64,000 nucleotides of DNA from a virus: positions 1-64,000 of the IMG/VR virus record IMGVR_UViG_3300045988_073620; one strand, given 5' to 3'. Under the pieces are notes generated by a model. The model was given only the letters and a program-made list of their open reading frames with translations, searched no databases and was not told where the DNA came from. The stretch's first letter is position 1, and each line of letters starts with the position of its first letter. The position numbers and the translations under genes are program-made. Positions 13,147 to 37,680 of the stretch are shown here, one piece after another.

Positions 13147-13290
13147 GCTAAATACCTCATAAAAATAAAAACGCCCCATAAAGGACGTTTACATGCACAA
13201 AAATAGCGCCTATTGTTCTTACTCTGATAGACGCTTTATGATTTTTTATTTTATCACATACATGAAGTATGTTTCAGTATGAATAGTAAA
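13147..13290 (-). promoter_or_regulatory. late regulatory cassette copy 3
   Basis: TTCATACTGAAACATAC, then 13 nt, TAAAAT, hairpin AGCGTCTAT/ATAGGCGCT + ATTTTTGTGCATG, then a second hairpin with a T-run. The layout aligns with cassettes at 21877-21985 and 37568-37680. Confidence 0.65.
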
Positions 13291-13883
13291 GCAATTTGAA
13301 AGACTACGGAAAATTAATTCGAAAACATGATTTATGTTCCAGAATGTCCTTGTGCGTTCGAAATTTATGCTTAAAATCAATTTTTATCCTTTCAGCGAGG
13401 ATTTTATCGAATCAAACTTAAAATCGTTTTAAAAGCCAAATACGAGATCAAGTGATTTAGTAGGGGCAAATAAGCTCTTATTCGACGATTAATATATATC
13501 TCGTATATATATTAATTATATTCTTATTCTTATTCTTATTCTATTGCGTTACAGCGCGTTACACGTAACGTTATTGTAACGTTACATTAAGATATTATGT
13601 AAACAAAAATGCCTTGTTGACAGAATATTTGTTTATAAAAAATTTTATTTTTTAAAATAAACTAATTATTTCGAAATCAATGAAAATTACAGTTTACAAA
13701 TTATTCATAAATTAGTTTCGGTGTATTTACATTTTAGTACTACTAGTTCTGAATTTTTAGTGTTATTTTGCCAAATAAGGGATTATTCCATTTTTTTGAA
13801 AAATTATACTCTTATTTGCTGTTTTTTGTTTTAAATAAGAACAAAATAGTACAAATTGTACTGTCCCTTTTAACTTTAATCAT

Positions 13884-13943
13884 AAAAAAAGTGCGCCCCG
13901 ATCAGTGCCGAAATTCATTCAATCCGATACTTTTTCGGGGCGC
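13884..13943 (-). terminator. intrinsic terminator after the tape measure gene
   Basis: Stem GCGCCCCGA ... TCGGGGCGC followed by ACTTTTTTT on the minus strand. Confidence 0.7.
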
Positions 13944-13971
13944 TATTATATCATTTATAGCAATTGTTATA

Positions 13972-16900
13972 TCAATATGCCGGTGATGGATTCATACGAT
14001 ATTCTGTATTGCTTTGTGCTTTTGTGACAATTCGTGCCAGCTCACGTTCGTTGACCTTGATGCTGTTCATGATGTACTCTGGCGAAGATCCACCAAATCC
14101 ACCGTTGTTCATCATCGCAGTAACCACGCCACGTTCAACAGCTTCCATGATTTCTTCTTTGGTAAGTCCCATATTGCCGTCATATCCAGACATGATGCTG
14201 TCGGCAATGGATTTCATGGCTTTGCGATTTTCCAAAGGAAGAACGGCTTCCTGTCCTGCTTCACCGACACCAATGACAGACGCCTTTGTAAATACTCCAC
14301 CTGTTGCGTACCAATTTACGCCAGAATTCCATTTATATGAATGCTTGTTTCCGTTTACAGATGCGGTCATGTCCATATACATATGCGGCGTTTGGATATT
14401 AACAGACTTCATGCCATTTGCCAAGTTCTGCATTGCATTATATCCGATATCATACATATTACTGAAAGAATTGCGGATTGTATCAACAAAACTACCCAGT
14501 GCACTGCTTATATCACTATTCATCGTACCGGAAATATAATTAGATATGTCTCTTCCGATATTTTCCCATTTCACATAAGCGATGTTATATTGGCTTTCGA
14601 AATGGCTTCTGACAGATTTGTCCATATTGCCAAGTTCTGTGCTGACCGCCACCTTCATCTCTCTGGCCTTTACGGTTGCTTCTCGTGAAGAATTTCCCCA
14701 ATTCACAGACGTTGTGGTAGCGACATTTCCCATGTAAGTATCAGCTTGCTTTTGAATTTCTGCAAAGTCGTCAGTTGCATTTTTTGTCATTTCGCTTGTA
14801 GCTGTTTTGGTATCTTTTGATGCTTTTGCAACAGATGACGAAATAGTTTCCTGAGCCCCGACTATATTCTGCTCAACAGCCGTTTTGGTTGCAACAGCTG
14901 CATTCGGAAAATCTTCTTGTAATTTCTTATTAAGTTCATCAAGTGGAACACCTGCGTTTTTGAGAGAAGTGTAAACCGTGTCTAATGCATCTTTTGTGTT
15001 GCTATAAGGCACGTCACTTATTGCGTTCCATGCCGTTGTATAATTACCTCCGAATTCTGCAGAAGAAAGGCTCAATGCATACAGAGTATCTTTCAAATTA
15101 TCAACGCTGATCTTTGACGTATCAAATTTGCTTGCAGCTTCAGACACACCTTCCCCAAGAGCAGAGATTTGATCGGTCATACCCTCAACAAATTCAGCCG
15201 AAACACCCGCCTGTGCGCCATACTGCTCAAGAGCGGTTTTTGCCTGATCTGCTGAAACACCATATTCCTTTAGCTTTTCAACCATATCAGAATACATTTC
15301 ATCGTGGGTCTTTCCAAGCTCTTCGTCCTTTTCAATCAACTGCCATAATGCTTCTGATTGAGCATTTGTAAGATTTGCCACATCAGTCAACTGTGTTGCG
15401 TAATCATGCAGATAGCCGCCATATTGCGTAGTCATTCCATTTCCGCCTTGCATGGTTTCAAAGAGCCCAGCCAATTTTTTCGTTAGCAGAACAGCTCCGC
15501 CTACAGCAAGAGCAATTCCACCGCCTGTTGCCACAAGTGAGCCTAAAGATGTTCCGAGGGTCGGAATAGTAGTTTTTACTGCTTCTGTGATAGCCGGATT
15601 CAGCATATTTCTTACTGCTGTAGAAAGGTTTCCGAATACAGTATCGCCCGTAAAGAATTTAGTGATTGTATCTACCAGTGGCATTAATTTATTGCCGACT
15701 GCAAATACGGCTATAGCTTGAATGAACGTTCCTGCAGACGTAGTTCCAAGTCCATCCCAAATTCCACCAAGAACTTCACCTATAACAGTAAGTAATTGAG
15801 AAAGATGTTTTCCCCAATCAATTTCACTAAGAAATACGCCAATGTTGTGCCCGAATGATTCCCAATCAACACCTTCTGCAATGTCGATCAAAGAAGTGAG
15901 AAGGTTATCTATAAAGCTCTCAAGTTTCTGACCGTTCTCACGCCAATTAAATTCTTGCATAAATGTCACAATGCCAGTTGTGATATTGTTAACAAGATCA
16001 TCCCAATTGAAGTTATCGGTAAATGCCGCTAGTGAATCAAATGCACCATTCAAACCGGTTGCAAGCGCATGCGCGATTTCGCCAAAATCTACTTTTTCAA
16101 AAATACCATTTAAACCATTCGCAACAGCCTGACCGATTTCGTTATACGGAAGATTTTCTACAAATCCTGTAAACACATCCCATGCTTTCATGAAATTGTT
16201 TCCAAGCATGTTGCCCAAATTAGTCCATTCAACTTCGCGAATAAATCCTGTGACGCCTTCAGCAAATTTCTTTCCAAGGTTTTTGAAGTCTGTTCCTTCC
16301 AGAAGCTGATTTGCCATATTGACAATAGTATTTAATCCAGCACCAACAGTGCGTCCCATCAAATTCCAATTGATATTATCAACAAGGCTGTTGAAAGTCT
16401 GGGTGAATGCACTGGTGAATTTAGTGATGTAAGGGCCTACTTTGTTCCAGTTAATAGCATCATAGAGTTTTTGCATACCCCAGTTGATGCCATCAGCCAT
16501 GATTTTTCCAAGACCTTTCCAGTCTTTTCTCTTAAAGGCATTTACAATGGCATCCGCCATTTTATTTGCCCTGTTGGACATCTTTTTAAAAGCTTCATCC
16601 CATGCTTTTTGATATGCAGACAAAGCATCATCTAATGCAGCATCAAGTGCTCCTATATGTCCTAACCCACCATTTCCAGAACCGGAAGAAGGATTACTTG
16701 TACTACCAGAATCAGAATTGTCATTAAGCTGATTCAGTTCATCAAATGAAAGAACTGACAATGTTTTTTCGAGTTTTTTGGCATTCTTATTTGCAGTATC
16801 AATAGAATCACTGGCATTATCCATATCATCTGCAATGTTACTTGTATCTACAGAAATACCGCCAGTAGATGATACAAAGTTTGACAGTTTGATTCCAAGC

Positions 16901-19689
16901 AATTTTGCAATATAAGCAAACATTCTTTGAAGTGCAATGACTATTGCGTTGATATACGGAAGAACTGTTCGCAGTATAGGAATGAACAAGGAACCTATTG
17001 TTCTACCAAGGGATGCAAAATTGAATTGCAGCATACGAATCTGGTTTGCTGGCTGGTTAATCGTATTAGCCAAATCACCCCATGCATATTTAGAATTATT
17101 CAGCAAAATAATTGTACGTAAGATCGTTTTATCTGCCTGAGATAAATTTGATATGCTGGTGTTGATTCCCAGATTGTATAATTCCTGTTGCATGTTGGCA
17201 TTACGGATATTGATGCCGTACTTGTCCATTGCACGGCTCATGCCAGTCAATCCGGATGCCATGTCTTCCCATACATCTTCAAAATCCATGTTCCTTACAG
17301 ATGCAAGGTCAGAACCAATCATTGTCAAAGCATTTGACAACTTCAATGCAGTCTCGGAGGTATCGCCCATAGATGATGACATCTGTGCGAATGTCGCCTG
17401 ATACTGCATGGCCTTTTCAGGGTCAAGTCCAAGGCTTGCAGTATTTGTCCTAGTAAGTTCCCCAGTATCGGAAATTTCAAATCCTGTCAATTTCTGAGAA
17501 AGTTGTTTCGCTCTCTCTTGAAATGAATTGGCATATGCTTCTGCGGATTTAATACCGCTCTTCTTCCATTCGTCAGTGTCGATTCCTTCTGCCACCTGAT
17601 TGAACGCAGAGTTGAAATAGTTCAAAGTCTCTACGTAATTCATCGCAGATTCTACAGGCGATGATAAAACTTCAAGGGCCCGTTTTACTAAAAATCCTTT
17701 TGCATATAAAGCGCTCAACTTATTTGTCAATGAGCTTAACGGATTTGACAGTTTTCTTATTTTTTCACCTGTTTCGGACGAAGCGTTGCCTATTCCGGCT
17801 ATGGCTGATACTACTTTTCCCCCAAGAGATATTGTTTTTGAAGCAAAAGCCTGGAACGCATTAGCAACACCATGCATTACAGAACTGACTTTAGAGCCAA
17901 CAGACGACAAATTATTGAGTGAGCTTGAAACACTGCTTGTAGCTCTTCCGACTTTACTTCCAGACGAAGCAAGTACAGCCAATGCCTCTGTCATTCTTAT
18001 TGTGCTCGAACTGATATCTGGTGCGCTTTTCATTACGTCAAAAAACTTCAAAACCTCTTGCGCGAGAGTTGATAATTGATTTGCAGTCTTTCCAGTTTTA
18101 TCTCCTGCACTAGCTAATTTTCCAAGAGAAGTAATAAAAGCATTGGTGGATGCTGATACTTCGCTCATAGATCCTAATTTAGCAGCCGCATTATTTAAAC
18201 CTGTCGCAAGATTCGGAAGTTCCTTTGATACATTGCCGATATACTGTCCTGTGCCGGCAAGTTTAGCTATAGCGGTCGTGAACCGGCTAACGCTCGGAGA
18301 AACGTCTGGAATAGCATCAAGTTTCTGCATCTCAGTAAGAATTTCACCTAATTTTCCGGTATCAAACTGGCTAAAATCAGATTTACCAAGACGATTGATG
18401 GAATTTATAACTACATTTAATCCAGTACCTTTGAAATTCACACTTCCCAGATCGCGGAGAGAGGTTGCAAATTTTGCCATACTGGTAGACAAATCAGTCA
18501 TTTCTCCGGCATCAATATCTTTTAATTTCTTTGCGATTGCGTCTTTTACCGTTGTTACATCGGCATCCAGAGTAACGTTGACGGTATTGTATTTCAGGTC
18601 TGCTGCTTTATTGATTGCCTTCTGAATATCAAGGACAATTTTATCTGTATTGATTTTTACATCAATTGGAAGTTGACCGTTTGTGCTTTTTAATGTGTTT
18701 TGGATTCGATCCCTTATTTTCTGTGCAAGTTGATCGTAAGCGTCCACGCTCATTTCCCAGACTTTATCGGAAGCCTGCGTTGCTTCCTTACCAGACAGCT
18801 CCTGAATAGATATAGGCTTGATGGAATCTCTGGCCTTTTTTAGATTTTCAAGAACGGTTATCAACTGATCTGCAGCATTGATTGTATCTTTAGGAATTAA
18901 GGTAGGAAATCTATCTGCCAGTTCCCCCCAAGACTCATTAAGGTTTATCCCTTTTGCAGCATCTCGTACAACATTGCTCAAATTCTCTTTTAAGAGTTCA
19001 CTAAATTCACCTTTGCCGACATCTGTTTTAAGCATGTCAGAAACATAAATTCTTTTGTTCTTAAAGAAATTATAGAAATCGACCCATTCTTGTTCTGCAC
19101 CATCAAGATATGAGCCAAGATTTCCTTTTACGACACTTCCACTTTTAATTATGGTATTAGCAATATTGTTAAGAGTATCATTAAGTTTTGCCAAAATATC
19201 CGTTCCATCGTAAGAACTTGCCATCGTTTTAGACAGTTCATTCATCTGAGCACGAATCTTAGATGCTGCACCGCCTTTAAGATTAAATGCACTTATAAGC
19301 TGACCAGAAATCGCAGAAGTATCAACTTTTACATCTTGAATGGTTTTGTCAATGGCATACTGTAATTTTTGTGTCTGATCGCCACCTTTAATATCAAGGT
19401 CAAGGCTTATTTTCTGGTTTTGCAAATTGCTTAAATTGATTTTACTGAGAGTATTCAATTTATCAATTGTTTTATCTAAAGTAGAAATATTTAAGCTGCT
19501 GATGGAATTAAGTGCAACGGTAACTCGTCCAAGCTCTTTGGAATAATTTCTTAGCCCTCCGGTATTTATGCCATTAAGACTTTTGTTAAGTACTTCAAAC
19601 TTTTTGATAAGTCCATTGATAGATTGAATTGCTTTGGTAGCACTACTTTCTATCTGTATATCAAGGGTATCTATGGTATTATCTGCCAT
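13972..19689 (-). CDS. tape measure protein (1905 aa)
   Basis: Size, position after the G/GT chaperones, helical repeat composition and a central hydrophobic/Gly-rich segment. Confidence 0.9.
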   Translation of the reverse strand: MADNTIDTLDIQIESSATKAIQSINGLIKKFEVLNKSLNGINTGGLRNYSKELGRVTVALNSISSLNISTLDKTIDKLNTLSKINLSNLQNQKISLDLDIKGGDQTQKLQYAIDKTIQDVKVDTSAISGQLISAFNLKGGAASKIRAQMNELSKTMASSYDGTDILAKLNDTLNNIANTIIKSGSVVKGNLGSYLDGAEQEWVDFYNFFKNKRIYVSDMLKTDVGKGEFSELLKENLSNVVRDAAKGINLNESWGELADRFPTLIPKDTINAADQLITVLENLKKARDSIKPISIQELSGKEATQASDKVWEMSVDAYDQLAQKIRDRIQNTLKSTNGQLPIDVKINTDKIVLDIQKAINKAADLKYNTVNVTLDADVTTVKDAIAKKLKDIDAGEMTDLSTSMAKFATSLRDLGSVNFKGTGLNVVINSINRLGKSDFSQFDTGKLGEILTEMQKLDAIPDVSPSVSRFTTAIAKLAGTGQYIGNVSKELPNLATGLNNAAAKLGSMSEVSASTNAFITSLGKLASAGDKTGKTANQLSTLAQEVLKFFDVMKSAPDISSSTIRMTEALAVLASSGSKVGRATSSVSSSLNNLSSVGSKVSSVMHGVANAFQAFASKTISLGGKVVSAIAGIGNASSETGEKIRKLSNPLSSLTNKLSALYAKGFLVKRALEVLSSPVESAMNYVETLNYFNSAFNQVAEGIDTDEWKKSGIKSAEAYANSFQERAKQLSQKLTGFEISDTGELTRTNTASLGLDPEKAMQYQATFAQMSSSMGDTSETALKLSNALTMIGSDLASVRNMDFEDVWEDMASGLTGMSRAMDKYGINIRNANMQQELYNLGINTSISNLSQADKTILRTIILLNNSKYAWGDLANTINQPANQIRMLQFNFASLGRTIGSLFIPILRTVLPYINAIVIALQRMFAYIAKLLGIKLSNFVSSTGGISVDTSNIADDMDNASDSIDTANKNAKKLEKTLSVLSFDELNQLNDNSDSGSTSNPSSGSGNGGLGHIGALDAALDDALSAYQKAWDEAFKKMSNRANKMADAIVNAFKRKDWKGLGKIMADGINWGMQKLYDAINWNKVGPYITKFTSAFTQTFNSLVDNINWNLMGRTVGAGLNTIVNMANQLLEGTDFKNLGKKFAEGVTGFIREVEWTNLGNMLGNNFMKAWDVFTGFVENLPYNEIGQAVANGLNGIFEKVDFGEIAHALATGLNGAFDSLAAFTDNFNWDDLVNNITTGIVTFMQEFNWRENGQKLESFIDNLLTSLIDIAEGVDWESFGHNIGVFLSEIDWGKHLSQLLTVIGEVLGGIWDGLGTTSAGTFIQAIAVFAVGNKLMPLVDTITKFFTGDTVFGNLSTAVRNMLNPAITEAVKTTIPTLGTSLGSLVATGGGIALAVGGAVLLTKKLAGLFETMQGGNGMTTQYGGYLHDYATQLTDVANLTNAQSEALWQLIEKDEELGKTHDEMYSDMVEKLKEYGVSADQAKTALEQYGAQAGVSAEFVEGMTDQISALGEGVSEAASKFDTSKISVDNLKDTLYALSLSSAEFGGNYTTAWNAISDVPYSNTKDALDTVYTSLKNAGVPLDELNKKLQEDFPNAAVATKTAVEQNIVGAQETISSSVAKASKDTKTATSEMTKNATDDFAEIQKQADTYMGNVATTTSVNWGNSSREATVKAREMKVAVSTELGNMDKSVRSHFESQYNIAYVKWENIGRDISNYISGTMNSDISSALGSFVDTIRNSFSNMYDIGYNAMQNLANGMKSVNIQTPHMYMDMTASVNGNKHSYKWNSGVNWYATGGVFTKASVIGVGEAGQEAVLPLENRKAMKSIADSIMSGYDGNMGLTKEEIMEAVERGVVTAMMNNGGFGGSSPEYIMNSIKVNERELARIVTKAQSNTEYRMNPSPAY

Positions 19690-19736
19690 TAAAACACCTC
19701 CTTTTAATCAAAAAAAATAAAGGGCAGACAAGACTT

Positions 19737-20551
19737 TTAATCCTGCCTGCCCTCGTCATTATTACCATGATTCAGCTCAAAATTTGCTTGCATGAGTTGC
19801 AATGCCATGAGCAACCTGTCACGTTGCCGTTTCTTTTCTGTTTCAGAAAAATTCTCTTCATCCTCTTGCTTTTCAGCTGTTTGTGAAAATGGTTCTTTAA
19901 GGTATTCAGCCTTTGACTTTTTACCAATAAGCACATTTGCAACCGCAGTCTGAACTGCGCACATCGTGTACATATTGAACTGCCATGCTTGCGAATCTGC
20001 CATTTTTTGTTTTAATTTGTAGGCTTCCATGTATGGTTCTAAATCATACGGTGTGGAATCCCAAAACTTTTCATCTGAAACGCCAATAGACAAATAAAGT
20101 GGAAGTAGTTTTTTATGGACTACTTCAGAAAAAGTCAGCTCTTCTTGTGATCCTGCGGCATTTTGGTTACTTTCTGATTCTTCTCGGCTTCTTCCATCGC
20201 TTTCAGCATGCCGGATAAAAAACCATTCTTCTCAAGCTCCTTACTCGCTTTTTCAAATAAAGTAAATCCATTATGAGGATTTTCCTCTGTGGATTCATCT
20301 TCGTAGTCGTCCAGAAGGTCGCATACCTTTTCATATGCAACTTTCTTTTCTTCTTCGGTTTCATATCCGAATTCATCTTTGTGTTTTCTTTGAAGTCCCG
20401 CCAGAATCAATTCTGGAAGCATTTTAATCATATCTTTCGGATTGTTGATTGCTCCCATAGAAGACACTTGTGTAAGAATGTCCGACTGGGTAAGCACGCC
20501 ATATCCGAATTTTACTTTGTATGTTTTATCATTTACTGAGAAACTAAACAT
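19737..20551 (-). CDS. tail assembly chaperone G-T fusion made by a -1 frameshift
   Basis: Hand translation shows the -1 frame open from TTTTTTA (20216-20222) through to ORF 19737..20093. Confidence 0.7.
20135..20551 (-). CDS. tail assembly chaperone (gpG-like)
   Basis: It lies between the major tail and TMP genes and carries a slippery site near its 3' end. Confidence 0.8.
   Translation of the reverse strand: MFSFSVNDKTYKVKFGYGVLTQSDILTQVSSMGAINNPKDMIKMLPELILAGLQRKHKDEFGYETEEEKKVAYEKVCDLLDDYEDESTEENPHNGFTLFEKASKELEKNGFLSGMLKAMEEAEKNQKVTKMPQDHKKS
20216..20222 (-). other. -1 programmed frameshift heptamer U_UUU_UUA
   Basis: The zero-frame codons are GGT TTT TTA. The site is in the canonical position for gpG/gpGT. 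Confidence 0.7.
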
Positions 20552-20573
20552 GATAACCTCCCTGTTTTACATC

Positions 20574-21053
20574 TTATTCAGCAGCTGCTGTCGGCTCAAC
20601 TTTGGTATCCAGTCCCTTATATGTATTGATAATAAGAGAAATGGACATGGTTGCCGCTTCGTTCTGTGCAATTTCCGGCATTGGGATTTCACGACCACAT
20701 TCTGCAATAACAAAGAATGCATCGGACATATCCGGGAATGATACCTGGAACCAAGTTGCCAGTCCTGTAGTTTTTGCAGCCTTAGAATCTTCGTACAGTT
20801 TTTTAATCTGTTTAACAGATTTATCTGGATCCATGATAAATTCAATCTCCCAAGCACCACCTGTATCTTGTTTACCAGCTGCATACTGTGTCAGATAATC
20901 TTCCAGCGCAGAAACGTCAATCTGTTCTGTGTCAAGAGAAATACCGCCGATAGAAGAGGCTTCTTCCAGCTGCGTGAATTTGGTAGGCTTTGTGCCTTTC
21001 ACGGTTTCAACGGCATATGAAAATTTCACACCAAGTGTAGTTAATCGTGCCAT
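20574..21053 (-). CDS. major tail protein
   Basis: Start at MARLTTLGVKF... behind GGAAAGGAG, immediately upstream of the chaperones. Confidence 0.75.
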   Translation of the reverse strand: MARLTTLGVKFSYAVETVKGTKPTKFTQLEEASSIGGISLDTEQIDVSALEDYLTQYAAGKQDTGGAWEIEFIMDPDKSVKQIKKLYEDSKAAKTTGLATWFQVSFPDMSDAFFVIAECGREIPMPEIAQNEAATMSISLIINTYKGLDTKVEPTAAAE

Positions 21054-21160
21054 TTTGGCTCCTTTCCGCTTTTCAGCTATAAGTTTTTGCAATAAAAAAG
21101 AGCCTTAATGGCTCTAACGCTTAACCCTGCGTTTGGGAGATAAAAGGATCACCGTCCTTT

Positions 21161-21454: not shown

Positions 21455-21471
21455 AGTTTCTCACCCCTTTC

Positions 21472-27700: not shown

Positions 27701-27713
27701 ATTCCATGCCCTC

Positions 27714-28343: not shown

Positions 28344-28419
28344 GGTTTATCACCATCCTTTTCACTAAAAAGTCCCTGCCGCATTTCTGCAACAAGGACT
28401 TATTTTAATTCTTATTTGT

Positions 28420-29471: not shown

Positions 29472-29472
29472 T

Positions 29473-30492
29473 TTATTTACCTCCATTCTTTAAGTACTGC
29501 TCGATTTTGTTAATATCTTTTCCCCTAAAAGTTTCATATCCTCTATGATATCTTCCGTACATCTTTCCGTAATTTTCTCCTATAACATCGCACCACTCTT
29601 TTAGATTTTTTGTGATTCCAAAGAAAGTGAAATATATGCTGTTCCTTTTATTATTTGCTTGTTCTGCGTTAGTTGACCACCGGCAATTGTTTGGTTCGTA
29701 ATTTCCATTTACATTGATACGGTCAATCGTTAAACTATCAGTGTAGCCATTCTTTATAGACCAATTGTAGAAATTATCAAAGCCATGTTCTCCTAGCCAT
29801 TCAGGGCATATATTGATTCCACGACCACCGTAATCCTTGTACCTACGATCATTTAGGTTATAACATCTGTTCTTCATGTTGTGATAAATATTGTATATCC
29901 TTGTGTGCGTCATTCCGTGAGTTGTTTCTCTTTCAGAAAGTATAGCTTTTTGCAAACAACCACATGACAATGAGCGTCCGCTTAATAGACTATCGGCATT
30001 TACTGCTTTAATTTTACCGCAATCGCATTTACAAAGATACGATAGCTTTCTATTTTTGCGTTCTACTTTTTCTAAAACAGTCCATCTTCCGTATTTTTTT
30101 CCTACTAAATCCGACCTTGAGTTTGGACATGAACCACATGTGTTTATATAGTTCGCTTTCAAGTGACTTGCTGTTCTTAGGCAAGTATTCCCGCAATCGC
30201 ATCGGCATAACCATAATGGAATTTTTCTCTTTCCGTTGGTAGAACCTTCACGCTTAATTACATATAACTTACCAAACCTTTTCCCTGTTAAGTCTACATA
30301 AGCTTTTCTTCCGCACTTTCCACAGCTGCTATAATCATTACTTTTCAATGCACTTCTTGTCCTTGTTACATCGTTTCCACAATCGCAATGGCACTCCCAT
30401 AAATAAGAGCCATTTGCCGATTTTTTACTCGATCTTCTAATGACCGTCAATTTGACAAATCTTTGTCCTGTCAAATCATTTATTTTTGTCAT
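29473..30492 (-). CDS. free-standing HNH-type homing endonuclease-like protein with three G-[KQ]-[RK]-[FY]-G...C-x-C-D-C-G modules
   Basis: The C-terminus reads ...TIDRINVNGNYEPNNCRWSTNAEQANNK. It is a paralog of 47920..49089. Confidence 0.7.
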   Translation of the reverse strand: MTKINDLTGQRFVKLTVIRRSSKKSANGSYLWECHCDCGNDVTRTRSALKSNDYSSCGKCGRKAYVDLTGKRFGKLYVIKREGSTNGKRKIPLWLCRCDCGNTCLRTASHLKANYINTCGSCPNSRSDLVGKKYGRWTVLEKVERKNRKLSYLCKCDCGKIKAVNADSLLSGRSLSCGCLQKAILSERETTHGMTHTRIYNIYHNMKNRCYNLNDRRYKDYGGRGINICPEWLGEHGFDNFYNWSIKNGYTDSLTIDRINVNGNYEPNNCRWSTNAEQANNKRNSIYFTFFGITKNLKEWCDVIGENYGKMYGRYHRGYETFRGKDINKIEQYLKNGGK

Positions 30493-30601
30493 GTGCTGTC
30501 AATCTCCTTAATTAAGTTTAATTAAATTATAACATATGTTCTATTTGACTACAACAAAAAACTGTGTTAAACTTAATTAAATTTCAGAAAGGATGTGTGA
30601 C

Positions 30602-30772
30602 ATGTCAAAAAATGAACTAAAAAATAGAGTTCGATTTTCAACTACTCTTGAACTATGCACAAACAAAAAACTTAAAGATTTTTCTCAAAAAACAGAAATT
30701 CCAATCAGTAAAATCGTAAACAATGCAATCAATGAATACATCGAAAGAAAGGAAGCTCAAAATAAGAGGTGA
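30602..30772 (+). CDS. ribbon-helix-helix protein (56 aa)
   Basis: Hand translation gives MSKNELKNRVRFSTTLELCTNKKLKDFSQKTEIPISKIVNNAINEYIERKEAQNKR. It is divergent from the HNH gene. Confidence 0.5.
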   Translation: MSKNELKNRVRFSTTLELCTNKKLKDFSQKTEIPISKIVNNAINEYIERKEAQNKR

Positions 30773-30819
30773 GCCGCAACCCACCTCTTAGAATTAGTCA
30801 ACCTCTAAGGGTGAGTTAC

Positions 30820-31632
30820 TTAGCAGCAACCGTTGTTATATCCGTTGCATCCACCGTAGTAGGTGTTTGGATTCGGAACAACGTATGCCGGGATAGCTGC
30901 CGGATTGATTGCATTGATTAACTGCTGAGTCTGAGAAGCCATAGCAGTTGTAAGCAGTGCAGACTGGCGATCCTGGGATGCAGCACGTTTCAGATCAGAA
31001 TTCTCTGCCTGTAATGTTGCAAGCTTATCATTCGTTAAGAAATCAAGGATTGCTCTTGTATTGCTGTTCTGATTGTCCAGAATATCTCTGGTATTGTTGT
31101 TCATTGTGTTCTGAAGAGCACAAGTGTTGGTTGCCAGGTTGTAGTTGATACCCTGGATAGCTTCCCTTGTTTCGCAGCAACAATTTGCTAACTGAGACTG
31201 TAATGCATTGGTATTCTGCATACCGGCTACAGTGTCAGCGTTAATTGCCTGCTGAACGCCATTGAAGCCCTGAAGCATTCCAACGTTCACGCCATTGAAG
31301 CCACTCTGCATGGTATTGTTGAGTGCATATGTGCTGTCACAGATACCCTGCTGAATGCCTCTGATACCGTTCTGAATATCATTAAGAGCAAAACTCTCGC
31401 TAATATCTGAACGGGTTGCCCATCCTTGGAATCCTGCGCCATTTGCACCGTTTCCACCATTACCACCGAAGCCACCGCCCCAGCCGCCGAAACCTCCCCA
31501 TCCGAAGATTGCGAAGATCAGTACGAGCCAGATAAGTGAAAAGCCATCGCCGCCCCACATATCATTGGCGCGATTATTAGAGCCTGTAGCGGCAGCAATG
31601 TCGCTAAGACTGTAATTTGAACCATTCATCAT
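30820..31632 (-). CDS. Gly-rich membrane protein with Cys-rich C-terminus
   Basis: One TM segment is followed by GWGGFGGWGGGFGGNGGNG, then N/Q-rich repeats, a CCC motif and the terminal ...YYGGCNGYNNGCC. Confidence 0.6.
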   Translation of the reverse strand: MMNGSNYSLSDIAAATGSNNRANDMWGGDGFSLIWLVLIFAIFGWGGFGGWGGGFGGNGGNGANGAGFQGWATRSDISESFALNDIQNGIRGIQQGICDSTYALNNTMQSGFNGVNVGMLQGFNGVQQAINADTVAGMQNTNALQSQLANCCCETREAIQGINYNLATNTCALQNTMNNNTRDILDNQNSNTRAILDFLTNDKLATLQAENSDLKRAASQDRQSALLTTAMASQTQQLINAINPAAIPAYVVPNPNTYYGGCNGYNNGCC

Positions 31633-31729
31633 GTTTTTAGTCTCCTTAAATTTTATTTACAATAGGAGACATCCGCGGCTGTCATCCCAAATTGTAGCGA
31701 TTTTTTAATCACCCAATTGTGGGGAAGTA

Positions 31730-31975
31730 TTATAATCCAAGGAATTTTTGAATAATTCCATCTGGTGATAAGTGCTTTTCGTTAAATACATTTTGCTGTA
31801 TTTGATGCAACTGATCTGTATCACCTTTTTTATACAAATCCAAAGCATTTTTCAATGTTGGATTATTTCCCGCAAATTTACTCATATCGTTCATCATGTT
31901 ATCAACACTTCCGAACCTTTGAGAAATCATTTTCTCAAATTGATTTTTTATCATGGCGTTTGGGTTGAAACTCAT
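31730..31975 (-). CDS. hypothetical protein
   Basis: ORF track. Confidence 0.5.
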   Translation of the reverse strand: MSFNPNAMIKNQFEKMISQRFGSVDNMMNDMSKFAGNNPTLKNALDLYKKGDTDQLHQIQQNVFNEKHLSPDGIIQKFLGL

Positions 31976-32475
31976 CTCTGCTTACCTCCGTTCTGCTGTC
32001 TAGTGGAATCATTTGCGACCGACATTTGTGTCGGCAGCAAATCTTTTATTCCAGAAATCTCAGAGCAAACGTCATCATGAAGCTGTTTAAACATTGCTTC
32101 AATATCAATCTGTTTTCCTTCCTGTTTTGGTTGCTGTTCGTCTGAATTTACAAGTCGGTAAACAAAGATCCTGCTTCTTCCATCGGATTGAAGCTGTTTT
32201 CTGTAGATTTCGGTTCCGTCTGTCTTCGGATAATAAACAGGATTACCGGACATATCCACATCTTTCGCCTTTACAGTGTCAATACCATCAACCATTTGTC
32301 CTTGTATCATTGGGACTTGTGGTATTTGCTGTACGGGTTGTTGCATCTGCATTTGTCCATATGGCATTGTCTGCTGATAGTTACTCTGCAATTGTGCCAG
32401 CCTGTCCTGATACGGCTGTATTTGTCCGTATGGATTGTTTATAATTGGCTGTGGGTAATACGGATAACCTGCCAT
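31972..32475 (-). CDS. Q/P/Y-rich low-complexity protein
   Basis: GGGAGG RBS. The N-terminus reads MAGYPYYPQPIINNPYGQIQPYQ.... Confidence 0.6.
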   Translation of the reverse strand: MAGYPYYPQPIINNPYGQIQPYQDRLAQLQSNYQQTMPYGQMQMQQPVQQIPQVPMIQGQMVDGIDTVKAKDVDMSGNPVYYPKTDGTEIYRKQLQSDGRSRIFVYRLVNSDEQQPKQEGKQIDIEAMFKQLHDDVCSEISGIKDLLPTQMSVANDSTRQQNGGKQR

Positions 32476-32634
32476 AGTCTGTTCCTCCCATTCTTTTTGC
32501 TTCGAGAATTACATCCATGTCATCAACTGACAGATGCTTTTCCCATAAACCTTCATAAGGGTTCTCTAACATAAGCATATTGTTTTCTCCTTATGCTTAC
32601 ATTATATAGGAAGGAACTCTTCATTTGAACGTCA

Positions 32635-32889
32635 CTATTTCGCCATATTTTCGCCACAATACAAAGAAAAGCCCCGTTCATAAGACGGGGCAACTTTCTG
32701 AATTTTCTGTTTAATTTTTCTATTTATTCGGTCAATAGTTCGTGGGCTATACCCCATAATCTCCGCTGCTTCAAGCAAAGTTTTTTCCTCATAAACTCTT
32801 AACCGAAAAAATTCTTTTTCACGTGAATCAAATCCCGATTGACTCAGATAATATTTTCTTTCATCTTCTGAAAAGTCTGTATAATTCAT
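32635..32889 (-). CDS. sigma-70 region-4-like HTH protein
   Basis: Contains ...TLLEAAEIMGYSPRTIDRINRKIKQKI.... Start at MNYTDF behind GGGAGG. Confidence 0.55.
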   Translation of the reverse strand: MNYTDFSEDERKYYLSQSGFDSREKEFFRLRVYEEKTLLEAAEIMGYSPRTIDRINRKIKQKIQKVAPSYERGFSLYCGENMAK

Positions 32890-32916
32890 ATCCACCGTCC
32901 TCCCGTACAAGTGGAA

Positions 32917-33228
32917 TTAAACTGGAAGAATACCGTTTATTATAAATCCTACCGCTGCACTAACAATCGCAGTAATGATACATACAATGATTGTGTCGTA
33001 GCGTTTACCTGGAACTGCCATAAGAATCTTTAAATTGTTATTCATCTCATCAACAGTTGACTTGATATGGTTCAAATCATTCTCGCTTAAAGCAGTTTTT
33101 CTTTCCAGTTCTCCGATACGCTCATAAAATTCCTTATGGCGTTCGGATTGTCTTTCCTGCATCTGTTGAAGATTTTTTTCAAGTTCTTCTATGCGGTGTT
33201 CGTTAAAACATTCATGTTCACATCCCAT
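32917..33228 (-). CDS. XhlA-like coiled-coil protein with C-terminal TM segment
   Basis: A coiled-coil segment (HRIEELEKNLQQMQERQ...) is followed by the TM segment IIVCIITAIVSAAVGFIINGILPV. Confidence 0.5.
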   Translation of the reverse strand: MGCEHECFNEHRIEELEKNLQQMQERQSERHKEFYERIGELERKTALSENDLNHIKSTVDEMNNNLKILMAVPGKRYDTIIVCIITAIVSAAVGFIINGILPV

Positions 33229-33343
33229 CGCCACTCCATTTCTCACTCCCTACATGATTCTTGCTTTTTCCCAACCGAAAATAAAGCAACCCAGCGACGC
33301 TTCGGGAGGACTTGATAGTGCGTCACGTGTCCCAACCATCTTT

Positions 33344-33670
33344 TTATGTCAAACTTCCTGCAAATGGAAAAACTCCATGATTGATATAGATTTCAGTCTC
33401 AGATTCCCAACTTCGGTTTACAGAAGATTCAGAATGTGAACCTTGGAATTCAGCACCTTGTTTTACAAGAAAAAAAAGTGCTAAGTCAAATATACAGTCA
33501 TAGCAATTTTCCATATCATTGCAAATTTTTTCGTCTGTATAACCAGAAGGATAATTTCTCTTCTTCTTGAATGAACGAATCGCCCGTTTAACAGATAGAG
33601 AAACCATCTCAGGATTTTCTATGTCATCAGATAAATAATTCATCAAATCATTAATAAGCTCTTCGTTCAT
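33344..33670 (-). CDS. head-tail connector (gp6-like) candidate
   Basis: Position after the capsid gene, and size. Confidence 0.45.
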   Translation of the reverse strand: MNEELINDLMNYLSDDIENPEMVSLSVKRAIRSFKKKRNYPSGYTDEKICNDMENCYDCIFDLALFFLVKQGAEFQGSHSESSVNRSWESETEIYINHGVFPFAGSLT

Positions 33671-33680
33671 TCAAAACCAC

Positions 33681-33896
33681 CTATCCTTGTTGAGTTAAAA
33701 TTTCCGCGATTATACCAGCCTTATTTGTTTGAGTCAGGGCATAGCCATTGTCACTCGCAAGCTGTCTTAACTGAAGTACAGTCATGCTTGACAGATCGCT
33801 TTCTGTGTATTTATGTATTAAATCATTATCTTCAACACTCCCTACAGCTGGTGACTGGCTGTTCTCATCAAGACTATGCCCGGTTATTCCCCCTTT
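33681..33896 (-). CDS. -1 frame extension of the capsid gene, or a small independent Rho-N/HeH-like ORF
   Basis: About 68 codons are open in the -1 frame from A_AAG_GGG (33890-33896). They end ...MTVLQLRQLASDNGYALTQTNKAGIIAEILTQQG, and there is no in-frame start before that internal ATG. Confidence 0.4.
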   Translation of the reverse strand, partial: KGGITGHSLDENSQSPAVGSVEDNDLIHKYTESDLSSMTVLQLRQLASDNGYALTQTNKAGIIAEILTQQG

Positions 33897-34921
33897 GTAC
33901 CGATAACGATACCGCCGTTGGCTTTTGGCGCAACCGGAACGAACATGCCGGATGCTTTAGTCCAAACTGCAACCGGGTCTGGTGTAGCCCACATAGACAG
34001 TGTTACAAATGAACGATTCTCCTGCTCAATGAACTGTCTGTATTCGTTCTCATCAGGAGTCGGTCCCCATAAACCAACGCCGAAAGAGCCATCGGAATTA
34101 GCAGAGTATAAAGTAAAGACACCTTCTTTGAAAATTCTTGCTTTTCCGAGAGTTCCGTCCGCTTTGTCGAAGTTGAATTTTTCTTCACAAGCATTTATCT
34201 CTGTGATTCCAAATTCTTGCTCTAAAATAAAATCAAGTTCTTGCTTTGTAAGCAATCTCTTATTTGCATTACCAAGCACAGCCGACTGTAAGCCGGTGTT
34301 GGTTCTCATGTAATTAATCATCTTTCTTGAAGTGATAGCTTTGGTAACTGCATATCCATGATCTTCGGCAATTTCAACCATTTTGTAAATGTCACCCATG
34401 ATGTCAGCATCAGGTTTAGACCAGTCAGAAAGGTCTACTTTTGCATCAGCAGGAACTCCAAAATCAACTTCCATTTTTACATTGTTTTCGTTGATAGTGA
34501 GTTTTCCATTTGCAAGAGCCTGTCCTTTCATGACTCTAGTTCTGGTAAATACGCTTCTGAATAATCTTGTTGCATCATCAAACACATATCTTGTAAGGGC
34601 TTCGTCATCAGAAACGCCGTTCTCGATAACTTCTTGTAATTTTTCTGTCTGATTGATTTTTTCCTTAATAAGGAATTTTTCTGTCATTACTTTTTCAAAT
34701 CCCGGCCTACTACCGATATGAGCTTCTGAATCAAGTGCATGAACATAAGCTACTTTTGGAAGATTCTGTCCGCTCATTAATCTGTAAAATTCCGCTTTCC
34801 AGAACTGTGTTTTAACATTCGGGAAAATTGTATCCAGAATGCTTTCATTATCTACTGGAAAATTCTGTGAAAATTTTAATCTTTCTTGTGTATCAATAGT
34901 CTCTAATACATTGTATGGCAT
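33884..34921 (-). CDS. major capsid protein (protein E-like family)
   Basis: 345 aa, positioned after the scaffold and decoration genes. The C-terminus reads ...LSMWATPDPVAVWTKASGMFVPV.... Confidence 0.85.
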   Translation of the reverse strand: MPYNVLETIDTQERLKFSQNFPVDNESILDTIFPNVKTQFWKAEFYRLMSGQNLPKVAYVHALDSEAHIGSRPGFEKVMTEKFLIKEKINQTEKLQEVIENGVSDDEALTRYVFDDATRLFRSVFTRTRVMKGQALANGKLTINENNVKMEVDFGVPADAKVDLSDWSKPDADIMGDIYKMVEIAEDHGYAVTKAITSRKMINYMRTNTGLQSAVLGNANKRLLTKQELDFILEQEFGITEINACEEKFNFDKADGTLGKARIFKEGVFTLYSANSDGSFGVGLWGPTPDENEYRQFIEQENRSFVTLSMWATPDPVAVWTKASGMFVPVAPKANGGIVIGTKGE

Positions 34922-34934
34922 TTCTTATACCTCC

Positions 34935-35273
34935 TTAAAATGTAGGGTCTTCTGTAGTTACAAATGTGATACCTTTTAAAGCCGTTTTTGCTTCTGATGT
35001 AATAGTTTGAGGAAGCCTTTTTTCTAACATTCTTCCGGCTACATAAACGCCTTCTGGTCTTTTTTCGTCATCTGTCATATCGACATCCTGTATTAAAAGC
35101 CCATATGCACTAGAATCATTACTCGGAATAACAGTTCCTGCTTTAATAATCTTTCTTCCGTTTGTTTCTGTTGCCATATTCTGTGTTACTGTATATGTTT
35201 TTGGTGTAAGCCCGATTTCAGACTCGACAAAATTTGGTGTAGACTCAAATTGTTTGGTTTTCATAAAAGCCAT
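34935..35273 (-). CDS. head decoration-like protein
   Basis: 112 aa, lying between the scaffold and capsid genes. Confidence 0.55.
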   Translation of the reverse strand: MAFMKTKQFESTPNFVESEIGLTPKTYTVTQNMATETNGRKIIKAGTVIPSNDSSAYGLLIQDVDMTDDEKRPEGVYVAGRMLEKRLPQTITSEAKTALKGITFVTTEDPTF

Positions 35274-35287
35274 AATCTCAATCTCCT

Positions 35288-35920
35288 TTATTTACTTTCT
35301 GGTTCATTAGTTATCTTTTGCGGAGATAAATATCTTGAAAAATATTCTTCCGCTTTGCTCTTTTCTTCTTTCTTTTCGCTACTCTTTCCGCCGCCCGGAT
35401 TAGGTGTCTTTTCAAGTACTTCCTTTTCCCAAGCTGCTTTGGCATCTGCAAGTGATGTTTTATTTGCTTCGGAAATTCCATTAACAAAGCTTTGAACTTC
35501 CTTCATTACGTCCTCAGTTTTATCTACTGGCATAGATGCAAAAGCTTTGATAGCACTTGCATATGCTTCAGTCGAAAGACCTGCATTGGCAAACGCTGAT
35601 GTAATCTCACTTGTAAGAGCTTTTTTATTGGATTCAGCAAGTGCAGCTTTTAAATCGGCAAGCTCTTTATCCACTGCTTCCTTTTCTTTCCGACGTTCAT
35701 CTTCCTGTTTCTCGGCATCTGTCATATTCTGCTGTTTCAGCTCTTCCAATTCTTTTTCAAGGTCTGCTGCCTTGTTGGCTTTTTCTTGTAATGAAGCATT
35801 TTTGTCTTTTTCTTTCTTTACTTCTCCTGTAACGGAATCAAGGTATTTAGACACCTGTTCATCAGATGGTTCCTCAATTCCCATACCGATAAGTACCTGT
35901 TTTGCCTGTTCTCTTGTCAT
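35288..35920 (-). CDS. scaffolding protein
   Basis: E/K/A-rich coiled coil. Start at MTREQAKQ behind AAAGGAG. Confidence 0.75.
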   Translation of the reverse strand: MTREQAKQVLIGMGIEEPSDEQVSKYLDSVTGEVKKEKDKNASLQEKANKAADLEKELEELKQQNMTDAEKQEDERRKEKEAVDKELADLKAALAESNKKALTSEITSAFANAGLSTEAYASAIKAFASMPVDKTEDVMKEVQSFVNGISEANKTSLADAKAAWEKEVLEKTPNPGGGKSSEKKEEKSKAEEYFSRYLSPQKITNEPESK

Positions 35921-36079
35921 GAAATCTCCTTTCTTCCAGACCAACACGCTTTGTTCACACGGTTCGCTCCGCACATGATCTGCACCCGATTTGCGCTCAC
36001 GGGCTGTTGCAATATTTTTGAGTATTAAAAAAGGAATCCCAGTTTCCCAAGATTCCTTAAATAATTGATGTAAAAACGT

Positions 36080-37567
36080 TTATTCTTCATCAGTGGAAGA
36101 AATTATTGCTGATTGATTTTGAATTGATTTCTGACTAAAATCTTTAATCAATTCTTGTGCTTTTTGCATTTCTGCGTCTGGGTTTGCCAGTTCAGGATAA
36201 ACAGTTCCAAGATATGGTAAGCTCATTTCATATACCTTTTGTGGATCACTAAATAATCCGCAAGTAATCAGTGCAATAAGCGGATGAATTTTATTTTTGA
36301 ACAGATAATCAAGCGCCTGTGCTTTAACAAGCATGTTATCTGTCGGGTTTCTGGTGATTTTTACATCAAAATCTCTGGTCGAAATATTTACATCCATTGA
36401 AGTTTTTCGAATGATATTCAAAATGATTCTGGCAGATGCTTTTTCAGCTTCTTTCGTAAATGCTTCTACCAATTTTGCTTCTCTCTCCGCAAAATCCCAA
36501 CCGTTCCTCAGATATACTGCATTTCCTGTGTCTCCGCCGGTGTTGCTCTGCCGATTTGGCATTGCTTCTACAATCAGCATATTGTTGTAAATATCATCTT
36601 TAGCAACCTGGCTCTCTGACTGATTTAGTTCAGCAGTCATTAAGTCAACGTCTGATTGTGTTCCGTTGCCTACATCTTTTACAGATACAGCACCGAGTTT
36701 TATCATTTTTACAAATTCTGCTTCGTCAATCTCACAGTTTTTGAATTTCATCAGAGCTTGTACGAACTGTTCAACCCCATTCAGTCTGTCAGATTGATAC
36801 TTATTGATTGCATCATACATTGTGATCGCAATTTCGATGTCGGAAAGTCTGTCGTGATTATTTGGATATTCAATGATAGGAATACCGCCAAAACCATTGA
36901 TTCCAGATTCTGTTACCTTTCCGTTCTGGATTTTGAAATACATTTTTGAAGAATAGCAGAGATAATATTGCTGATTATCTTCGTTTTTAAGTATCTGTAC
37001 CGAAAGCATCGGTTTCCCATTTCCGGATGAATATACGATATAAGCATCCCACGGACACGGTATGAAGATTCTGAATGGCGGTAAGTCTCCATCCTTTGTC
37101 CATTCATCCTCTCTCAGGATTGCTTTATATGCAGTTCCTACTGCACTCTGGTATATTCCAAGCTGAATGTTTCTGGCGTCTGCATTGGCTTCGTCCAGAT
37201 AATCATTGAGCCTATCAACTTGTTCGTTTGTTTTTTCACTCGCTTTTTTCTTCTTGCAGACATACTGAATAGGTTCTCCGTATATCTGTCCTGCCTTGAA
37301 TTTGACTGTTTCAAGGGCATGATTCTCAACAACTTTATTGTTGACCTCTGGGCGAACAAGTTTTTCACGATATAAAATTGGCTGATCGCCCTTGTAATAT
37401 CTATAAAGGTAATCCATCAGGGTTCTATTTCTGTTATGGATTCCGATTGTATCAGAAAGGACCTGTGCCACATTCTGGGGAGTAATCTGGTCTACGCCAG
37501 TATAGGCAATTTTTCTGCCAAACTCGCCTTGGCATAGGTCAACAAAATTTGTTTTGTTTCTCCCCAC
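36080..37567 (-). CDS. portal protein (GTG start behind AGGAGG)
   Basis: About 495 aa, lying between TerL and the scaffold. The ATG at 37606 falls inside the conserved leader hairpin, so it was not used. Confidence 0.85.
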   Translation of the reverse strand: MGRNKTNFVDLCQGEFGRKIAYTGVDQITPQNVAQVLSDTIGIHNRNRTLMDYLYRYYKGDQPILYREKLVRPEVNNKVVENHALETVKFKAGQIYGEPIQYVCKKKKASEKTNEQVDRLNDYLDEANADARNIQLGIYQSAVGTAYKAILREDEWTKDGDLPPFRIFIPCPWDAYIVYSSGNGKPMLSVQILKNEDNQQYYLCYSSKMYFKIQNGKVTESGINGFGGIPIIEYPNNHDRLSDIEIAITMYDAINKYQSDRLNGVEQFVQALMKFKNCEIDEAEFVKMIKLGAVSVKDVGNGTQSDVDLMTAELNQSESQVAKDDIYNNMLIVEAMPNRQSNTGGDTGNAVYLRNGWDFAEREAKLVEAFTKEAEKASARIILNIIRKTSMDVNISTRDFDVKITRNPTDNMLVKAQALDYLFKNKIHPLIALITCGLFSDPQKVYEMSLPYLGTVYPELANPDAEMQKAQELIKDFSQKSIQNQSAIISSTDEE

Positions 37568-37680
37568 TGCCTGTCCTCCTATTTTTCTGCATGAAAAAAG
37601 CACCAAGGTTTGACCTCAGTGCTTATTTTACAGCTTATATTATACAACTTTTTTAAGTATGGTTCAGTATGAAGTTTATG
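37568..37680 (-). promoter_or_regulatory. late regulatory cassette copy 1
   Basis: CTTCATACTGAACCATAC, then 13 nt, TATAAT, hairpin AAGCAC...GTGCTT + TTTTTCATGC, then the RBS. Confidence 0.65.

Follow-up and report, generated by a model that had tools for sequence, protein, structure and literature searches.

The DNA analyzed here, called the window below, is a stretch of 64,000 nucleotides (nt) from a virus, positions 1 to 64,000 of the IMG/VR record IMGVR_UViG_3300045988_073620. It is a phage genome read on the minus strand. Three of its late transcription units, which encode structural and lysis proteins, are each preceded by a cassette made of a short direct repeat, a promoter, and a leader hairpin. 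The first cassette starts directly behind a gene for a protein of 139 amino acids (aa), which lies between the genes for the large terminase (terL) and the portal protein. Positions of all features are collected in Table 1.

The 15-mer CATACTGAAMCATAC was found exactly three times in the window, each time as the operator of one cassette, and there was no further match with 0 to 2 mismatches in the 64 kb. By our own arithmetic, about 2e-4 exact matches would be expected by chance. Each cassette reads, in order, CATAC-N5-CATAC direct repeat, a spacer (12, 12, and 13 nt in copies 1, 2, and 3), TG and a sigma-A-type −10 hexamer, a gap of 11 to 14 nt, and the hairpin, followed by a U-tract, (C/G)ATGC, a ribosome-binding site (RBS), and a start codon. 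The CATAC repeats, one helical turn apart, flank a weak −35 element (CTGAAM); with the predicted start as reference, they span about −39 to −25 and overlap the −35 region. An earlier note, made from the letters of this DNA, had placed three copies of a promoter plus leader-terminator unit on the minus strand upstream of the late blocks, with a conserved motif where a −35 element would be. The copies are where it put them, structural and lysis genes lie downstream, and the repeats lie over and beside the −35 position. Its order of elements and its spacers of 12 to 13 nt also stand; the distance of 10 to 12 nt between −10 and hairpin had to be corrected to 14, 11, and 11 nt in copies 1, 2, and 3. 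The TG preceding all three −10 hexamers was not mentioned in that note.

The hairpins begin with AAGC in all copies and have the stems (9 to 14 bp) and T5 to T6 tracts of intrinsic terminators. Folding energies were −21 kcal/mol for the cassette 1 hairpin and −22 kcal/mol for that of cassette 2 (z of −4.1 for both), and 0 of 200 shuffles folded equally well for either. The leader region of cassette 3, which contains two terminators in tandem, reached −24 kcal/mol (z of −3.2). Behind the U-tract, CATGC is found at 37589–37593 in copy 1 and at 21898–21902 in copy 2, and GTGCATG at 13192–13198 in copy 3. Such a (C/T)ATGC sits 0 to 2 nt past the U-tract and persists, as TATGCC, where the regulators are only 27 to 34% identical.

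Only 11 to 25 nt separate the U-tract from the RBS. No promoter fits into this space, and therefore cassette transcripts must cross the terminator. A promoter after the hairpin, as published for phi11/80alpha, was considered and rejected here, since the available −10-like strings would start transcription inside or after the RBS. The first 35 to 50 nt of each predicted transcript are the terminator (about 85 nt up to the second hairpin of copy 3). The folding and spacing data strongly support a genuine intrinsic terminator located 11 to 14 nt after the −10, within the transcript of the predicted regulated promoter.

We next consider the relatives. An unrestricted scan of viral contigs with the 15-mer gave mostly chance matches, and the hairpin was added to the pattern. 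The pattern from motif to U-tract retrieved 27 IMG/VR loci with a full cassette, and all three cassette types are present on related contigs of about 80 kb (e.g., 3300045988_095776 and _088682). Among 28 distinct hairpin variants, 92.6% of the base-pair cells held standard pairs, compared to 80.7% in column shuffles and 34 to 62% with slid partners, and 6 of 11 stem pairs were changed on both sides (compensatory changes). As the variants are related sequences, this covariation is support for the structure and not proof of it. The loop and the upper part of the stem vary freely, and the cassette 2 variants of relatives retain pairing. No lineage has lost the U-tract, whereas the hairpin begins anywhere from 11 to about 75 nt after the −10. 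The order of regulator gene, repeats, −10, leader, terminator, and RBS of the first late gene was the same in all relatives examined (27 to 97% identity), and the hairpins of relatives had z values of −3.5 to −5.3.

These data bear on two other functions of the hairpin. In Firmicutes, 5' stem-loops stabilize mRNAs, and the hairpin could mainly be a 5' stabilizer or processing signal against 5' exonuclease instead of a terminator. Its location about 4 to 7 nt from the predicted 5' end in the window would suit this role. A stabilizer, however, does not need the invariably kept U-tract, the tandem hairpin plus U-tract units of copy 3 are not accounted for, and a function that requires the 5' end is hard to reconcile with −10-to-hairpin distances of 11 to about 75 nt. 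We consider a stabilizer improbable. Alternatively, the cassettes could be genes for terminated RNAs of about 40 to 50 nt that have their own function, much like lambda 6S or oop RNA, because a promoter and a terminator with nothing in between necessarily yield such an RNA. Against this, loop and upper stem vary freely, no Rfam family was matched, and the RBS of a late gene, for which there is no other promoter, comes directly after each cassette; this explanation appears very remote. The Rfam scan of the cassettes gave no family at gathering score, with a sub-threshold ylbH leader (24 bits vs 50, E of 0.22) as the only weak match.

The conserved CATG(C) was also inspected as a possible start of a leader peptide. 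It was rejected because it has no RBS and because frame and length vary between copies and lineages. In GenBank phages of the 'Ca. Heliusvirales', "hypothetical proteins" of 31 to 34 aa overlie the promoter and the hairpin (L145, 2930–3028; L146, 2936–3040; L147, 2951–3046). These open reading frames (ORFs), including those in PV036449 and PV036417, differ in frame between phages and are probably spurious.

The 139-aa protein encoded upstream of cassette 1 matched Pfam DUF1492 (22.5 bits vs a cutoff of 21.5) and phrog_36 (E of 2.8e-18), and its homologs carry PF07374 (DUF1492) or the Sigma70_r4-type domains PF04545 or PF08281. In the AF2 model (mean pLDDT of 85), a long N-terminal helical hairpin with a nearly invariant tip loop, ERVQTS, is joined to a C-terminal domain of three to four helices with a sigma region-4-like helix-turn-helix (HTH). 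This domain superposes on sigma-4 of SigF with a root mean square deviation of 1.5 Å, and also on SigD4 and on region 4 of SigR (Foldseek, PDB). Global E-values against the PDB were weak, none being ≤0.001; against BFVD, the best matches were DUF1492 proteins (E of 2.7e-9, TM of 0.84). According to these sequence and model comparisons, the protein belongs to the DUF1492/LtrB branch (family III) of the Ltr superfamily. This superfamily comprises RinA/ArpU, LtrA (Sigma70_r4), LtrB (DUF1492), and LtrC, which are late-gene activators of Gram-positive phages (PMC3152322, PMC3753634).

The earlier note had called for a dedicated activator or sigma-like factor and had named two ORFs as candidates. 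The 139-aa protein is a strong candidate for this factor, given its family, its HTH, and the co-variation described below. An alternative sigma factor is not indicated: the model has no equivalent of region 2, and the −10 elements are host sigma-A-like and preceded by TG. The second candidate, an 84-aa ORF with a sigma region-4-like HTH, is unsupported. It was rejected as a paralog of the regulator, as the two proteins gave no alignment, and no evidence linking it to the cassette motif was found.

To relate the regulator to the repeats, we compared 53 distinct regions downstream of regulator genes, derived from 80 IMG/VR loci (43 to 97% identity), and, in addition, those of four GenBank phages (27 to 46%). 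In all of them, two to three short direct repeats were found right past the regulator stop codon, spaced at 10-nt intervals (20-nt intervals in the most distant ones), and the −10 came after the repeats, usually with a preceding TG. Across about ten lineages, the repeated 5-mer tracks the predicted recognition helix. Helices SYQRTKELH and AYQWVRQLH go with CATAC, SYSHVKLLH with AATAC, SEVTIKRLH and SEIHIKKKH, i.e., SE(V/I)xIK, with GATAC, SEDYVKHLH with xxCAC, (S/N)EEYIKQFH with CAC, TTAC, or TAAC, and SWRQVVRLH, i.e., S(W/F)RQ, with ATGTCAT.

The AATAC lineage is particularly informative. Its genomes are almost identical to the window from the −10 onward, and its distant cassette 2 bears an AATAC operator together with a copied 9-nt tail of the ltr ORF, GAAAGTTAA. 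The −10, leader, and hairpin fused to this operator are those of cassette 2 of the window. (The loci compared in this lineage do not cover cassette 3.) The copied ORF tail shows that cassette 1 was the source from which the operators spread, by duplication or by conversion. The arrangement indicates that exchange of the regulator allele goes with exchange of the operator at other cassettes, and we regard it as the strongest single piece of evidence for the predicted regulator-operator link. Because recognition helix and repeat co-vary, and because this cassette 2 carries the matching operator, it is strongly supported that the cassettes are Ltr-dependent late promoters. Recognition of the CATAC repeats by the sigma-4-like HTH of the regulator is strongly supported as well.

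Binding at the operator could also mean repression. In this case, the TG/−10 promoters would be constitutive and the 139-aa protein would shut them off at the CATAC operator until late in infection. The repeats overlap the −35 region, and extended −10 promoters can work without a −35 element. On the other hand, all superfamily members tested so far, one of them a DUF1492 protein, are activators of late transcription, and the regulator gene has packaging genes as neighbors and is not part of the lysogeny module at 3–6 kb. We therefore think repression highly improbable.

An activated cassette transcript would meet its own leader hairpin and, further on, the terminators within the late units that are listed in Table 1. 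With a terminator behind the promoter and no promoter after it, antitermination is the most likely way through. The resulting combined reading, in which Ltr-controlled promoters are coupled to promoter-loaded antitermination past the leader terminator, is in our judgment evenly balanced between right and wrong. In this scheme, the terminator would block early, accessory, or tape-measure transcription from upstream from entering the late genes, and it would also block basal firing of the TG/−10 promoter. Polymerase initiating at an Ltr-occupied operator would become terminator resistant, plausibly because the regulator would be positioned at the beta-flap/RNA-exit region that is normally contacted by sigma-4. 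Resistant polymerase would also pass the internal terminators between portal and scaffold and before the tape-measure gene. The logic would be that of lambda Q or Pseudomonas AlpA, achieved with an unrelated protein.

The number of cassettes would also be understandable, as the late region is interrupted twice and each restart needs a cassette of its own. The first break is formed by about 12 kb of accessory genes (from the major capsid protein gene to 21985), and the second by the terminator after the tape-measure gene and about 600 nt of AT-rich noncoding DNA, which set cassette 3 apart from the unit upstream. The cassette would restart transcription after each break.

Several points weigh against the combined reading. 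Start sites, termination, and read-through are all predictions. Ltr proteins are treated as plain activators in published work (PMC3753634, PMC3152322, PMC13123087); a 2026 study of the Phi13 Ltr keeps the activator model and makes no mention of terminators (PMC13123087). The published start site of phi11/80alpha was mapped downstream of the terminator, and the literature searched contained no paper linking RinA or ArpU proteins to antitermination. A PDB profile search and Foldseek with the regulator gave sigma region-4 domains only, and neither Q nor AlpA was among the matches listed. A lineage with 73% identity (L132) has a type 3 cassette with the operator and TGGTACAAT but no hairpin, which means that the promoter can work without the terminator. 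Finally, a −10-like element in the initially transcribed region of cassette 1 is possibly a sigma-dependent pause site or an alternative −10. Its consensus TGTAAnAAT is kept in several lineages and missing from L162 and L144, the sequence is AT-rich so that chance is possible, and cassette types 2 and 3 match it poorly.

Much of this would be accommodated if the hairpins were leaky attenuators or insulators of Ltr-activated promoters, with no antitermination involved. Passive read-through would then suffice under strong activation, and in lysogens the hairpins would stop read-through from upstream and damp basal firing of the TG/−10 promoters. The description of Ltr proteins solely as activators, a regulator without the Q or AlpA fold, the weak and not universal pause element, and the natural hairpin-less cassette of L132 all agree with this. 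Partial terminators inside late operons commonly set protein ratios, and the terminator before the tape-measure gene may do so too. The arrangement of the cassettes argues in the opposite direction. A terminator followed by a promoter would insulate equally well with no wasted transcripts, yet the promoter comes first in all three paralogous cassettes and across every lineage (27 to 97% identity). Copy 3 already lies behind the tape-measure terminator and 600 nt of noncoding DNA, and it still has two terminators of its own; in addition, long stems and good U-tracts suggest efficient termination. We judge leaky attenuation unlikely, though a serious contender.

A further possibility makes use of the −10-like hexamers 6 to 8 nt past the −10 (TAAAAT at 37625–37630 in copy 1, and the weaker TATAAA and CATAAA in copies 2 and 3). 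Without regulator, sigma-A would use the upstream TG/−10 and the full hairpin would terminate; with regulator, RNA polymerase would be shifted to the second hexamer and start inside the 5' arm, so that the terminator cannot form. In each copy, the second hexamer abuts the hairpin, and the repeats would then be at about −55 to −40, nearer to the positions reported for Alt and the Phi13 Ltr. This contrasts with the lack of the critical final T of the hexamer in copies 2 and 3, and with leaders of 20 to 75 nt (L084 and L220) in which the hairpin is too far from such a start. We give start-site switching little credence.

Described Ltr systems provide the closest comparison for the combined reading. 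Shared features are a small regulator with DUF1492 or a sigma-4-like HTH, whose gene is directly upstream of its promoter, allele-specific short direct repeats starting from the stop codon, and a terminator ahead of the first late gene. In Ltr systems, direct repeats immediately behind the regulator gene are the known binding sites, and reporter data in S. aureus place a terminator in the spacer between regulator and late genes and identify the Ltr protein as the only phage factor needed for expression (PMC3753634, PMC3152322). The order of repeats and then terminator is also found in other phages. In the 80alpha sequence, rinA is followed by TGGCAGT repeats, with a strong terminator about 40 nt ahead of terS. 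The phiFL2A sequence has three TTGGCGG repeats and TGCTAATAT behind arpU, and at least two terminators within the roughly 800 nt that separate arpU from terS. This spacer of the Enterococcus phage phiFL2A (L325, 14029–14822) is annotated as empty; it also contains an extended −10 and a tRNA/tmRNA-like 3' end (GGTTCGAATCC...CGCCA).

There are also differences. There are three responsive cassettes here instead of one described late promoter. The regulator gene of the window lies between terL and portal and not before terS; in the distant relatives PV036449 and PV036417, it is in the canonical place before HNH and terminase genes, and PV036449, which is complete, has a single cassette at this site. 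The 5-mer repeats flank the −35, whereas published repeats are 40 to 150 bp upstream of the start, and the terminator is unambiguously after the promoter. The three promoters, the terL-portal position of the regulator, the −35-flanking operator, and the terminator inside the predicted transcript set the system apart from the described Ltr family.

This comparison invites a more general proposal, that the Ltr/RinA/ArpU "activators" are promoter-loaded antiterminators, or dual activator-antiterminators, functionally analogous to Q and AlpA on a sigma region-4-like scaffold. We put it forward tentatively, doubting it more than we believe it. If true, it would account for two older findings on staphylococcal phages: the RinA binding site lies more than 155 bp ahead of the mapped 5' end of terS, the two being separated by a terminator, and RinA alone restores expression across that spacer terminator.

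The earlier note had called the modules Q/qut-like, and the analogy in logic is reasonable. As in the Q systems of lambda, 21, and 82 (QBE/qut, tR') and in AlpA, a DNA site for a small HTH protein lies inside the promoter (here by anatomy), a terminator follows shortly downstream, before lysis or structural genes, and more terminators are found within the operon. The first transcribed bases here also include a −10-like hexamer; as a pause element it is weakly indicated, being conserved in several lineages but not in all. The regulator of the window, in contrast, resembles neither Q nor AlpA in sequence or fold among the matches listed, there are three modules instead of one, and the promoter itself probably needs a factor; Q promoters are constitutive. 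By analogy, the cassette system would thus resemble Q/qut and AlpA in logic; as homology between the proteins is lacking, we do not file it there. AlpA, a closer precedent than Q, is a small protein that binds a promoter-embedded element with its C-terminal HTH and, with an N-terminal ring in the RNA exit channel, blocks hairpin formation (PMC9371919). BrrG of the Bartonella gene transfer agent is listed among promoter-loaded processive antiterminators (bioRxiv 10.1101/2024.11.20.624540).

Other phages provide looser parallels. P2 Ogr and P4 Delta serve four late promoters with one activator, and Mu C likewise acts at several promoters. In these phages, as in the window, several late units share one activator site, placed at a constant spacing from the −10, but the activators have zinc-finger or other folds, the hosts are Gram negative, and there is no promoter-proximal terminator. 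The claim of the earlier note that three modules are unusual consequently holds in comparison to Ltr systems and to the one-cassette phage PV036449, not for phages generally. Phage sigma factors or fragments (SPO1 gp28 and gp33-34, PBSX Xpf, T4 gp55 and gp33) share a sigma region-4-like domain and late-gene control. They differ in that the window regulator has no region-2 equivalent and that the −10s are host sigma-A-like, with no distinct consensus.

The cassette itself represents ordinary phage regulation. Its interest lies in the conserved promoter-then-terminator geometry, which makes a loose end of RinA-type regulation testable. A very large share of the temperate phages that infect Firmicutes rely on Ltr proteins to turn on their packaging, virion, and lysis genes; among them are the phages that mobilize staphylococcal pathogenicity islands. 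Their mechanism has so far been described as "activation", and the gap between binding site and mapped start, with a terminator in it, is unexplained. The gut-phage clade is a compact natural test case with three cassettes per genome and dozens of operator/regulator allele pairs. It also offers hairpin variants and one hairpin-less cassette, so that activation and antitermination are separable on short templates. The co-varying regulator/operator pairs are a set of orthogonal late-gene switches for Clostridia-class hosts. In addition, the cassette is a useful annotation marker for late units in uncultivated 'Ca. Heliusvirales'-like phages, in which spurious ORFs of about 30 aa are currently annotated over the hairpin.

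Table 1. Cassettes, regulator, and gene blocks of the 64,000-nt window
Feature	Position	Strand	Remarks
Regulator gene, Ltr-like, 139 aa	37676–38095	−	predicted DUF1492/LtrB type; between terL and portal
Cassette 1 operator, CATAC-TGAAC-CATAC	37657–37671	−	repeats 10 bp apart; starts 5 nt past regulator stop codon
Cassette 1 −10 with TG (TGTATAAT)	37639–37646	−	TATAAT, 37639–37644; kept in all cassette-1 relatives
Second −10-like element (TGTAAAAT)	37625–37632	−	initially transcribed region; weak evidence
Cassette 1 terminator	37594–37624	−	12-bp stem AAGCACTGAGGT/ACCTTGGTGCTT, loop CAA, T6 (first two T pair with AA)
Portal gene, first after cassette 1	36080–37567	−	GTG 37565–37567; RBS AGGAGG 37575–37580; Pfam SPP1_portal, E 2.8e-75
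Terminator between portal and scaffold	36031–36058	−	no promoter; cassette 1 transcripts must traverse it
Cassette 2 operator, CATAC-TGAAA-CATAC	21963–21977	−	
Cassette 2 extended −10 (TGATATACT)	21945–21953	−	TATACT, 21945–21950
Cassette 2 terminator	21903–21935	−	core stem 21909–21931 with G-U pairs; A-tract/T6 extension
First gene after cassette 2, 134 aa	21472–21876	−	no family
Hol44 holin	21161–21454	−	Pfam, E 4e-28
Tail tube	20574–21092	−	after holin
Terminator directly before tape-measure RBS	19720–19754	−	strong, 16 bp; no promoter room; cassette 2 transcripts must traverse it
Tail chaperones, then tape measure	13972–19689 (tape measure)	−	cassette 2 unit
Terminator after tape-measure gene	13884–13943	−	GCGCCCCGA...TCGGGGCGC + T7
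Weak operator copy, 3 mismatches	13332–13346		near cassette 3
Cassette 3 operator, CATAC-TGAAA-CATAC	13267–13281	−	
Cassette 3 extended −10 (TGATAAAAT)	13248–13256	−	TAAAAT, 13248–13253
Cassette 3 first terminator	13199–13235	−	9-bp stem AGCGTCTAT/ATAGGCGCT, 13-nt loop, A+T5; −10.3 kcal/mol
Cassette 3 second (tandem) terminator	13161–13190	−	AAACGTCC-TTTA-TGGGGCGTTT (hairpin 13169–13190), then T5AT5
First gene after cassette 3, DUF6711/phrog_1194	12784–13146	−	tail-tip module; ATG 13144–13146; RBS GAGG 13155–13158
1057-aa tail protein, then endolysin	8169–9614 (endolysin)	−	downstream of DUF6711 gene
Second sigma region-4-like HTH ORF, 84 aa	32635–32889	−	Pfam Sigma70_r4, E 3e-6; NCBIfam
Replication genes and integrase	~55–63 kb	−	
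tRNAs, then SPFH protein		−	between replication genes and terL
terL	38099–39850	−	
Portal, scaffold, major capsid genes	33884–37567	−	
~12 kb, mostly unknown genes	21985–33880	−	includes second integrase; splits capsid from tail genes
134-aa protein, holin, tail tube, chaperones, tape measure	13972–21876	−	
Noncoding stretch, ~0.7 kb	13290–13972	−	between tape measure and cassette 3
Tail-tip genes and endolysin	8169–13146	−	
Lysogeny-type module	3–6 kb		after endolysin in gene order

The sequences closest to the window are uncultivated phage contigs from human feces, and the regulator had no close relative among GTDB genomes. Its distant relatives are encoded by GenBank phages labeled Ruminococcus, Oscillospiraceae, or Acutalibacteraceae ('Ca. 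Heliusvirales'), and these labels alone suggest a host in that range.

The block of about 12 kb between capsid and tail genes encodes, on the minus strand, an XhlA-like protein (32917–33246), the 84-aa sigma-4 HTH protein (32635–32889), an HNH endonuclease (29473–30492), a 577-aa GDSL-lipase/tail-fiber-like protein (24637–26370), and a tyrosine integrase (23417–24412); the other integrase of the window is at 56420–57700. Flanking att-like direct repeats, as would be expected of an embedded mobile element, were looked for around this integrase-bearing block and not found. The Hol44 holin gene is the second gene after cassette 2, before the tail tube gene and 11 kb from the endolysin gene.

The noncoding stretch upstream of cassette 3 is AT-rich and contains four GTAACG repeats, (AATAAG)4, and a 27-nt palindrome, TTAATATATATACGAGATATATATTAA. 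It begins with TGATATAAT, immediately followed by the long tape-measure terminator, and looks like an origin, a packaging site, or an att site. At the large terminase gene, the RBS AAAGGAGG is located within a hairpin loop (AGAGCCAG...CTGGCTCT; 39848–39905, minus strand). The hairpin is followed by ATTTTT and then ATG, forming a terminator-like structure around the translation start.

Three tRNA genes (Thr-TGT, Met-CAT, and Gln-TTG) were detected in 42838–45642 (minus strand). A 115-nt tRNA-like Rfam match at 44659–44773, which ARAGORN does not call, lies directly upstream of the gene for a DUF2828+DUF7788+VWA protein (42961–44412; phrog_850, "RNA-binding protein"). The two may represent a Ro60-like protein with a Y-RNA-like partner. 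Finally, a full-length match to the Rfam RAGATH-18 RNA (RF03064; 76 bits vs a gathering score of 44.9) was found at 1326–1398 on the minus strand, adjoining the anti-repressor and repressor gene region.

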